DNA of 36,522 nt from UHGV virus genome UHGV-0118448; one strand, 5' to 3'. This DNA comes from a virus. The notes below the pieces were generated by a model. That model was given only the letters and a program-made list of their open reading frames with translations. It was not told the DNA's origin and did no database searches. Below, in pieces: positions 10,532 through 11,299 of the stretch; position 1 is the first letter of the stretch; the number at the start of each line of letters is the position of its first letter. The position numbers and the translations under genes were made by a program.

Positions 10532-11031
10532 TATTCGCTCCCATTATCGCAAGGTTCCTTTCGGTGGAAGTAATTCCAACCGTTCCACTTCGCCAACTGG
10601 TTTCCACTGCCAACAGGCATACGGTTTGGATAACCGGACTTACATTTAGCGGCTTTTGCTCTGTCCATTGCAGACAGTTTGACGAGTCGCTCTTTCCCGT
10701 ATCTGGCAGTGGTTATAAGTTTTGCTGACGCTTCCAGCGCATAATCCGGAGCAATGCGGCAGGCAAGGTTGAAAATGACGGCATTGATAGCGTTATTTGA
10801 TAAACCGTGCTCATCGCCCGGATCCGGAGCGACATCTGCATCAGCAAAAATGTAGCCAACGTTGATCCCAGGTGACGCATCACCGCCAAGCCATTCAGCC
10901 ATCATCATTTCAAGGTCGTTGACGCCGTCTTCCATAGACTGCGGTTCGACATCAGTTAACGTGGCATTTGATGCCACACCGAGCTTACGTAATGCCGCAA
11001 GGACTAAATCACCCTTCGTTGTCAGGTTCAT
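10531..11031 (-). CDS. Head-tail adaptor (P22 gp4-like), start at internal Met [10 protein letters not shown]
   Basis: [33 protein letters not shown] matches P22 gp4 N-terminus; the longer ORF-track start runs through a hexanucleotide repeat giving an SQSQSQ artefact. Confidence 0.8.
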
Positions 11032-11263
11032 CTGATGCCGCCTTAGGTTTTCGACCAGGCTTTTTACGCTGCTTTTCTTCTGGCTCTGGCTCTGGCTCTG
11101 GCTCTGGCTCTGGCTTTGCAACATCCTTCAAAAGGTCATCAGGATGTGAAAACCAGCCAGCATCCAGATATTCCTGAAGCTCTTCGGCTTTCACGATTTC
11201 AAAGTCGTATCCAACGCCTTTCCATTTCTTCATGTCGCCATGACGAAAGATCATGTGTGTCAT
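11009..11263 (-). CDS. Small protein with (Pro-Glu)n repeat between coat and gp4 (P22 ORF69 position)
   Basis: ATG at 11263 preceded by GGAGA; encodes ...[26 protein letters not shown]; the PE repeat is encoded by the tandem hexamer at 11081-11122. Confidence 0.5.
11081..11122. repeat. Tandem hexanucleotide repeat (TGGCTC)x6 plus one degenerate unit
   Basis: Read directly: tggctctggctctggctctggctctggctctggctctggctt. Confidence 0.95.
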
Positions 11264-11275
11264 GCTTGTCTCCAG

Positions 11276-11299
11276 ATAAAAAAGGGAGCCGAAGCTCCC
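11276..11299 (-). terminator. Intrinsic terminator immediately downstream of coat gene
   Basis: On minus strand: GGGAGC-TTCG-GCTCCC hairpin followed by TTTTTTAT, directly after the coat stop codon. Confidence 0.7.

Follow-up and report, generated by a model that had tools for sequence, protein, structure and literature searches.

In P22-like phages, the interval between the coat gene and gene 4 holds a small gene, orf69 in P22 and gene 6 in epsilon34, whose homologues differ markedly in length and whose role was given as unknown in the epsilon34 genome paper (PMC2629481); the same paper, in the passage citing Eppler et al. (1991), describes the gene as non-essential in P22 (PMC2629481). A literature search returned no functional study of orf69, gene 6 or the HK620 gene hkbT. 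A repeat has been described in a P22-like prophage, CUS-3 neuO; its copy range is 2-93, and activity there is graded by the length of the repeated peptide that in-frame copies add (PMC3046976). Here we describe an orf69-family open reading frame (ORF) in UHGV virus genome UHGV-0118448, a stretch of 36,522 nucleotides (nt), hereafter called the window, whose gene content and Pfam matches identify it as a nearly complete P22-like (Lederbergvirus-type) Escherichia coli prophage. Its nearest sequenced phages, at 95-97% identity, are IME10, APC_JM3.2, HZ41, Dewey, Louie and Bas106. The feature of interest is an in-frame coding microsatellite in the predicted disordered linker of this known, uncharacterised phage gene family, and it lies beside an annotated hairpin. 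The small ORF and its parts are as follows, with lengths in amino acids (aa).

11009-11263, minus strand: small ORF of 84 aa, P22 orf69 family (phrog_1175), from the profile match, the frame test and calls by RefSeq and its Prokaryotic Genome Annotation Pipeline (PGAP)
11270-11273, minus strand: Shine-Dalgarno GGAG of the small ORF, 6 nt 5' of the ATG at 11263 and kept in relatives, read from the sequence
11120-11263, minus strand: N-terminal folded domain, residues 1-48, three strands and a helix, from AlphaFold2 and homologues
11078-11116, minus strand: hexanucleotide microsatellite encoding K-(PE)6, with a pure period-6 tract at 11079-11115, from Tandem Repeats Finder
11012-11077, minus strand: Lys/Arg-rich C-terminal tail, residues 63-84, conserved in enteric homologues

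Tandem Repeats Finder reported the array as the top-scoring repeat in the window (period 6, 11079-11115, 6.2 copies, 100% matches), and an 18-mer of the repeat unit occurred in the window at this site only, with none expected in 100 shuffles. In the codon register of the minus strand, the tract reads AAGCCA (11116-11111), five GAGCCA (11110-11081) and GAA, which gives K50 followed by (PE)6 at residues 51-62. The first-pass annotation of this stretch, made by a model from the sequence alone, had the encoded peptide right and miscounted the DNA: it described six perfect TGGCTC units, where that register holds five perfect units plus TGGCTT and six perfect units are found in the TCTGGC register alone. 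Its degenerate seventh unit, TGCAAC, agrees with the repeat at only 3 of 6 bases and drops out of the array. The position that it gave the repeat-bearing ORF, between coat and gp4, is borne out by the flanking genes, which match P22_CoatProtein (E=1e-165) and P22_Tail-4 (E=1e-58).

Copy number was compared across 93 loci, comprising the window, 6 phages, 6 E. coli chromosomes and 80 IMG/VR contigs (the best 80 of 227 matches). Array size ranged from 2 to 33 units (median 6) in 34 distinct alleles, with the N-terminal 48 residues and the C-terminal tail almost invariant. Plaque-forming phages had 2 (Bas106), 5, 6 and 8 units, and pure intact arrays of 24, 29 and 33 units were read directly. Among the complete E. 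coli genome matches listed, 54 of 60 length differences at the locus were exact multiples of 6; the other six departed from a multiple of 6 by 1 in either direction, and in those 6n-1 cases that were sequenced the U-tract of the hairpin had T5 in place of T6. A word-indexed protein search was filled by length variants of this one protein. This agrees with the first-pass proposal that in-frame slippage gives a length-variable protein and that copy number would differ among related phages: the number varies widely, near-identical flanks carry unlike counts, and the rest of the protein barely changes.

Unit number also varies on backgrounds that have hardly diverged. Single 800-bp flank haplotypes were found with several counts (4, 6 and 13 units; 9, 9, 10 and 13 units; or 4 and 11 units), and of 13 pairs of loci whose flanks had no more than 2 differences over 2.8 kb, 9 differed in unit number. 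The mean unit difference was 1.5 in near-identical pairs and about 3.4 in distant pairs. The small differences within near-identical pairs fit stepwise change that is faster than point substitution, and beyond such pairs repeat number carried essentially no phylogenetic signal (Spearman 0.05). At the DNA level, 72 of the 93 arrays were pure GAGCCA, and the others were built of 10 to 12 copies of GAACCA or of (GAGCCA-GAGCAA)n, that is, of 12-nt super-units. Homogeneity in DNA of this kind points to slippage or unit amplification, and not to codon-by-codon selection. Perfect head-to-tail copies, whole-unit differences between conserved flanks and homogeneity in DNA together mark the locus as an in-frame coding variable number tandem repeat (VNTR).

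We considered whether the array might be a phase-variable ON/OFF locus and rejected this. A 6-nt unit keeps the frame, which makes a frameshift switch impossible and leaves length polymorphism instead, and every full-length allele, including those of 24, 29 and 33 units, was read through the repeat in frame. In the sole disrupted allele, the nonsense codon lies elsewhere than in the repeat.

Because repeats may be collapsed or expanded when short reads are assembled, we also weighed chance similarity or an assembly artefact in a low-complexity region. We give this next to no credence. The chance expectation for the repeat is zero, and the array is carried by 217 of 5426 complete E. coli genomes as well as by 8 independently sequenced phage records (6 phages). 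The length differences come in whole units, and re-sequenced strains agree.

We consider it probable that the locus represents a slippage-generated, largely tolerated polymorphism of spacer length in the disordered linker of an orf69-family late protein. Replication slippage would add or remove whole 6-nt units, keeping the frame and changing the length of the spacer alone. Unit changes outpace point substitutions in the flanks, and alleles of 2-33 units coexist in nature. We infer that the resulting length variation is mostly tolerated and near-neutral, the repeat acting as an extended acidic spacer in an accessory protein.

Several observations weigh against this explanation. The IMG/VR contigs, being best matches, are biased to query-like lengths. 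Clonal and re-sequenced strains have the same count (two E. coli W records and identical pairs), which argues that the rate is not extreme and that the locus is not unstable on laboratory timescales. The hairpin that precedes the ORF is so conserved in close relatives that the lineage offers no compensatory changes. Lastly, no allele with fewer than 2 units was present among the 93 loci, and some spacer is kept in all lineages, either of which could reflect selection on length.

The absence of shorter alleles would also be expected if spacer length were tuned adaptively. On this alternative, the N-terminal domain would bind capsid, portal or DNA and the basic tail would bind DNA, as has been proposed for lambda gpFI. 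Slippage in the stiff (Glu-Pro)n rod between them would tune the reach, so that phages in a population would differ heritably and by degrees in how efficiently they package or assemble. The architecture of folded domain, disordered (PE)n and basic tail is compatible with such a design, and graded activity from VNTR length has a precedent in a P22-like prophage, CUS-3 neuO (PMC3046976). We regard adaptive tuning as unlikely, and return below to the protein features that speak for it. The finding that the middle of an orf69-family protein tolerates almost any length constrains models of what the protein does. Should length prove to matter, the locus would be one of few cases in which slippage tunes a virion-assembly operon by degrees.

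Judged by its conservation, the small ORF is a genuine gene under coding-type purifying selection, because it matches phrog_1175, has GGAG before its ATG, is called by PGAP and shows a synonymous excess in its own frame alone. The phrog_1175 match (E=1.1e-36) covers residues 1-82 against profile positions 1-72, and P22 orf69 falls full-length in the same PHROG (E=4.5e-31). As in the rest of the family, the ORF lies directly 3' of the coat gene and its stem-loop and overlaps the start of gene 4, by 23 nt in the window and by 17-26 nt in relatives. RefSeq/PGAP calls the equivalent ORF in E. coli prophages. Translation likely starts at the ATG at 11263 rather than at the GTG at 11311. Over the first 49 codons in the 93 loci, variable sites were 16 synonymous and 8 non-synonymous, against an expected synonymous share of 19% (binomial p=4.4e-7); in the remaining two frames, only 2 of 24 and 3 of 24 of the same sites were synonymous. 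The 84 nt 3' of the repeat held too few variable sites for the frame test, and the test on the N-terminal domain was used in its place. Searches of the small protein against Pfam and NCBIfam placed it in no family, the single match being compositional (Trypan_PARP, trypanosome procyclin, E=0.015), and Rfam had no match in window positions 10800-11500. An invariant repeat in an ORF with no sign of translation, which the first-pass annotation would have taken as evidence against its proposal, is not what we see: the counts vary and the reading frame is under coding-type purifying selection.

The repeat also affects how the next gene is read. Three features lie at this junction.

10531-11031, minus strand: gene 4 (head-tail adaptor), 166 aa, overlapping the end of the small ORF by 23 nt, from Pfam P22_Tail-4 (E=1.1e-58)
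11038-11044, minus strand: AAGGCGG, the ribosome-binding site (RBS) of gene 4, within the K74-A75-A76 codons of the small ORF and 6 nt 5' of the gp4 ATG, from the sequence
11032-11124, minus strand: spurious 5' extension of gp4, MLQ(SQ)n, open since the repeat has no stop in that frame, from the ORF list and alignment

The first-pass annotation had noted that the repeat runs through the 5' extension of the gp4 ORF. The overlap is there; the extension does not stand as a real protein. Residue 1 of P22 gp4 (Protein Data Bank, PDB, entry 8tvu) aligns with residue 32 of the 197-aa extended ORF, and the Pfam model begins at residue 2 of the short form. On a rival reading, translation of gp4 would begin ahead of the repeat and the head-tail adaptor would carry (Ser-Gln)n at its N-terminus. 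This reading can point to a frame that is open from the ATG at 11124 and to the Dewey, Louie and IME10 records, which call gp4 in this way. We find it extremely improbable. Apart from the start of the solved 166-aa P22 protein, the upstream ATG falls in Asp-Val codons that are conserved in the small ORF, AAGG directly adjoins it without a spacer, and one relative has lost it (the KVVA allele). Variants in this frame are synonymous at just 2-3 of 24 sites, and PGAP calls the 166-aa form. By these comparisons, the (SQ)n extension of gp4 is an artefact of ORF calling.

Public records show how gene callers are led astray by the repeat. The entries for Dewey, Louie and IME10 carry gp4 on through the repeat as (SQ)n and leave out the real small ORF; in E. 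coli ECONIH6, an intact 29-unit allele is flagged by RefSeq as an 'incomplete' pseudogene. A literature search found no paper on the copy-number polymorphism, and 'repeat_region' is marked only in the APC_JM3.2 record.

The tight junction with gene 4 raises the question of whether the repeat matters at the level of mRNA, the small ORF serving as a translational ramp to the gene 4 start and repeat length tuning gp4 output by altering the distance or time from the hairpin and Shine-Dalgarno to the gene 4 RBS. The 17-26 nt overlap is kept across lineages, AAGGCGG lies inside the small ORF (the heptamer is identical and at the same distance in the window, P22, epsilon34, Sf6 and a Proteus phage), and the repeat is unstructured and C/A/G-rich. 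Against these points, gene 4 has its own well-spaced RBS, and although natural alleles range from 12 to 198 nt of added length, the surroundings of the gp4 start show no changes that would compensate. Conservation of the N-terminal domain at the protein level (G16, G36, W37 and P41, and the synonymous excess) would be needless for a mere ramp. We judge a role of this kind very unlikely.

The protein itself has a three-part plan that is common to its family: an N-terminal domain of about 45 aa, a lineage-variable middle and a Lys/Arg-rich tail. AlphaFold2, run on a 10-sequence alignment, gave a predicted local distance difference test score (pLDDT) of about 90 for residues 1-45 and of 50-55 for the repeat and tail, which are accordingly predicted to be disordered; a single-sequence run reached a pLDDT of 58 and was unusable. 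G16, G36, W37 and P41 are invariant in divergent homologues, and the N-terminal domain is common to epsilon34 gp6 and to Proteus and Shewanella homologues. The middle is (PE)n in the lineage of the window, a short imperfect PE-rich linker in sister lineages and 9 aa in P22. Phages of the epsilon34/ST64T type have a Pfam WDGH domain (PF25311, E=2e-40) in its place, which in epsilon34 gene 6 spans 100 aa. From these alignments, the middle of the orf69-family protein reads as an insertion hotspot.

Sf6 gp6 and HK620 hkbT were also considered as homologues. Homology was not demonstrated, and the two, both in phrog_3251, are treated here as positional analogues only. In the same slot of APSE-2, between the coat hairpin and gene P27 (locus 714-905), we observed an unannotated 63-aa ORF that resembles Sf6 gp6, and the Sodalis phiSG1 record has a likewise unannotated gap at the coat-hairpin/small-ORF position.

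For the function of the small protein we have two leads. The first comes from residues 19-39, which match a module of about 35 aa found in GIY-YIG/HNH homing endonucleases (phmmer E=1.8e-7 to 1e-4; hhalign Prob 96.3%). The phmmer search was exhaustive over a library of 1.8 billion proteins, and its E-values apply to the whole library. In these endonucleases, the module ('K.IK.EELQ.YLD.GW..G') is repeated 4-6 times and interleaved with NUMOD3 motifs; proteins carrying the repeated form include P0128, P0131, P0132, P0134, P0135 and P0138. Neither a model in Pfam or NCBIfam nor a solved structure was found for it, and PDB sequence searches with profiles of the N-terminal domain and of the endonuclease module returned noise only. 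It appears to be an undescribed nuclease-associated module, and its context points to a putative role in DNA binding. The small protein has the module in common with the homing endonucleases, differing from them in that it has a single copy, preceded by a longer beta-hairpin, and lacks a nuclease domain. That the N-terminal domain has this motif of about 21 residues in common with the DNA-binding regions of homing endonucleases favors the adaptive reading given above. It is also a small, testable lead on what the orf69 family does.

The basic tail is the other part that might contact DNA. In the distant homologue P0133, the tail position holds KRRGRPPK, a near-canonical AT-hook that scores 14.0 bits against an AT_hook cutoff of 17.4, and this too favors adaptive tuning. 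We did not assign the tail of the window protein to the AT-hooks: its KKPGRKPK has no match to Pfam PF02178. Tail conservation may also be explained more simply by the gene 4 RBS and start embedded in it.

The second lead is positional. Like lambda FI, the small ORF comes between the capsid gene, with its stem-loop, and the genes for head completion, and gpFI is reportedly likewise built of two modules and a linker. Lambda gpFI is described as a prohead-bound DNA-packaging chaperone, an accessory factor proposed to sit on the prohead lattice and to act via non-specific DNA binding (PMC4856287), and the common slot is a further point for adaptive tuning. The analogy is one of position and architecture. 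No gpFI chain was among the PDB sequence or fold matches, in a library whose gpFI entries were not confirmed. In its most specific form, the analogy would make the orf69-family protein a gpFI-like, two-handed accessory of packaging or head completion, holding DNA with the unnamed homing-endonuclease-type contact module on one side and the basic tail on the other, with (Glu-Pro)n as a slippage-driven 'molecular ruler' between them that would lend populations of E. coli P22-like phages graded, heritable differences in packaging or assembly performance. We consider this specific form quite improbable; were it true, the locus would be a contingency locus that acts on length, not on an on/off state, in a virion-assembly operon. 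The DNA-binding and gpFI-like ideas are offered as leads only. The locus is also highly polymorphic and can serve as it stands as a VNTR marker in the typing of P22-like prophages; about 4% of complete E. coli genomes carry such prophages.

The hairpin beside the small ORF had been described in the first-pass annotation as a strong terminator, GGGAGC-UUCG-GCUCCC with a U-tract, that follows the coat stop and probably sets the stoichiometry of coat to minor proteins. The structure is present as described.

11276-11302, minus strand: post-coat stem-loop and U-tract (core stem 11284-11299, extended stem 11281-11302, U6 11278-11283), from folding and conservation

It starts 5-8 nt past the coat TGA (11308-11310), has a centroid fold of -14.9 kcal/mol (z=-2.5 for the 66-nt context) and is among the two best terminator-like sites in 16 kb. 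Structurally it has what is expected of an intrinsic terminator: a stem of 6-9 bp with 5 G-C pairs, a UUCG loop and an immediate U6. The hairpin is almost invariant in 89 relatives, and its U-tract (window 11278-11283 and the homologous site) is length-polymorphic among relatives, with T5 or T6. After the coat stop, a hairpin and T-tract of other stem sequence occur in P22, epsilon34, Sf6, HK620, Proteus, Sodalis, APSE-2, Vibrio, Shewanella and Kosakonia phages. Because it is annotated in the P22 ('stem_loop'), Sf6 ('t coat') and HK620 ('tGP5') records, the post-coat hairpin is an already-known feature of P22-like phages. A literature search found no transcript mapping or functional data on these coat hairpins.

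Whether the hairpin can act as a full stop depends on how the late genes are transcribed. The window encodes a lambda-Q-type antiterminator.

21139-21762, minus strand: lambda-Q-type antiterminator gene, from Pfam Antiterm (E=1e-57)

In window 20860-21762 (minus strand), the Q gene precedes a PR' promoter of lambda type (TTGACT...TAAATT) and a tR'-like hairpin, which places the late operon under Q antitermination. Q-modified polymerase resists intrinsic terminators. A consensus scan gave no promoter past the hairpin and ahead of the small ORF or gp4, and further down only one weak 9-of-12 minus-strand match inside gp10. Given Q antitermination, no promoter before gp4, and gp4, gp10, gp26 and later ORFs downstream, the hairpin is not a full stop, and read-through is presumably substantial. 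Most likely it is a leaky attenuator, a 3' RNA stabiliser of the coat mRNA, or both. Either role would favor expression of coat and scaffold over the downstream minor proteins, and the first-pass suggestion that the hairpin sets coat-to-minor-protein stoichiometry is, in this qualified form, plausible. A second strong terminator-like hairpin, with 8 bp, 6 G-C pairs and a T-tract, was observed inside the late operon at window 19030-19049 (minus strand), after the Rz lysis gene and before the Rha/ORF11CD3 gene (18334-18876). Like the coat hairpin, it must be read through.

The remainder of the window has the layout of a P22-like prophage. The minus strand carries the tailspike, ejection, tail, head and terminase genes, and the late order around the repeat is portal, scaffold, coat, stem-loop, 84-aa ORF, gp4, gp10 and gp26, with a strong Pfam match for every named gene. 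The neighboring genes, and the integrase at the start of the window, are as follows.

13528-15693, minus strand: portal, from Pfam
12603-13514, minus strand: scaffold, from Pfam
11308-12603, minus strand: coat (major capsid), 431 aa, TGA stop at 11310-11308, from Pfam P22_CoatProtein (E=1.2e-165) and the ORF list
9113-10531, minus strand: gp10, from Pfam
8412-9113, minus strand: gp26, from Pfam
14-1207, plus strand: integrase, from the gene map

Two further loci drew our attention. The tailspike gene (window 1431-3428, minus strand) joins a P22 head-binding domain (Pfam E=3e-65) to a SASA-type carbohydrate esterase domain (E=3e-12), which suggests a receptor-destroying activity that is deacetylating and not glycosidic. 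ORF 26560-27450 is an O-like replication-initiator gene (phrog_345, E=5e-85), and within it, at window 26970-27064 (minus strand), two clusters of three 11-mers (TTGTCCAACGG) are followed by an AT-rich stretch. From its sequence, this arrangement resembles an origin of the lambda type, in which the iterons lie within gene O.

The hairpin and the repeat can both be set against described systems. The window has in common with P22-like and lambdoid post-coat stem-loops a GC-rich hairpin and U-tract after the major capsid stop and ahead of a small ORF, a location that has been noted as similar to that of the HK97 and lambda stem-loops. The stems differ: GGGAGC/GCUCCC with UUCG is found here and in a Proteus phage, GGGGC/GCCCC in P22 and epsilon34, and AAGGGGC in Sf6. 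Glu-Pro repeats, such as the (Glu-Pro)n/(Lys-Pro)n region of TonB and trypanosome EP procyclin, are generally seen as extended, fairly stiff acidic spacers. The small protein has the same alternating Glu-Pro, in keeping with its low pLDDT there; the likeness is one of composition only, with no homology.

Closest to the small protein is the P22 orf69/epsilon34 gene 6 family, which includes ST64T Orf-186 and ST104 ORF54 and which it resembles in PHROG, slot, overlap with gene 4 and three-part plan. It differs in its middle, which here is a DNA microsatellite varying from 2 to 33 units in one lineage, whereas the P22 linker is a fixed 9 aa and that of epsilon34 is WDGH. CUS-3 neuO is likewise a slippage-prone coding tandem repeat in a P22-like prophage with a wide natural copy range. 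In neuO, however, the unit is 7 nt, two-thirds of copy numbers shift the frame, and the result is an ON/OFF switch in a lysogenic-conversion gene, whereas the unit described here is 6 nt, always in frame, and the gene that it lengthens or shortens belongs to the virion-assembly operon.

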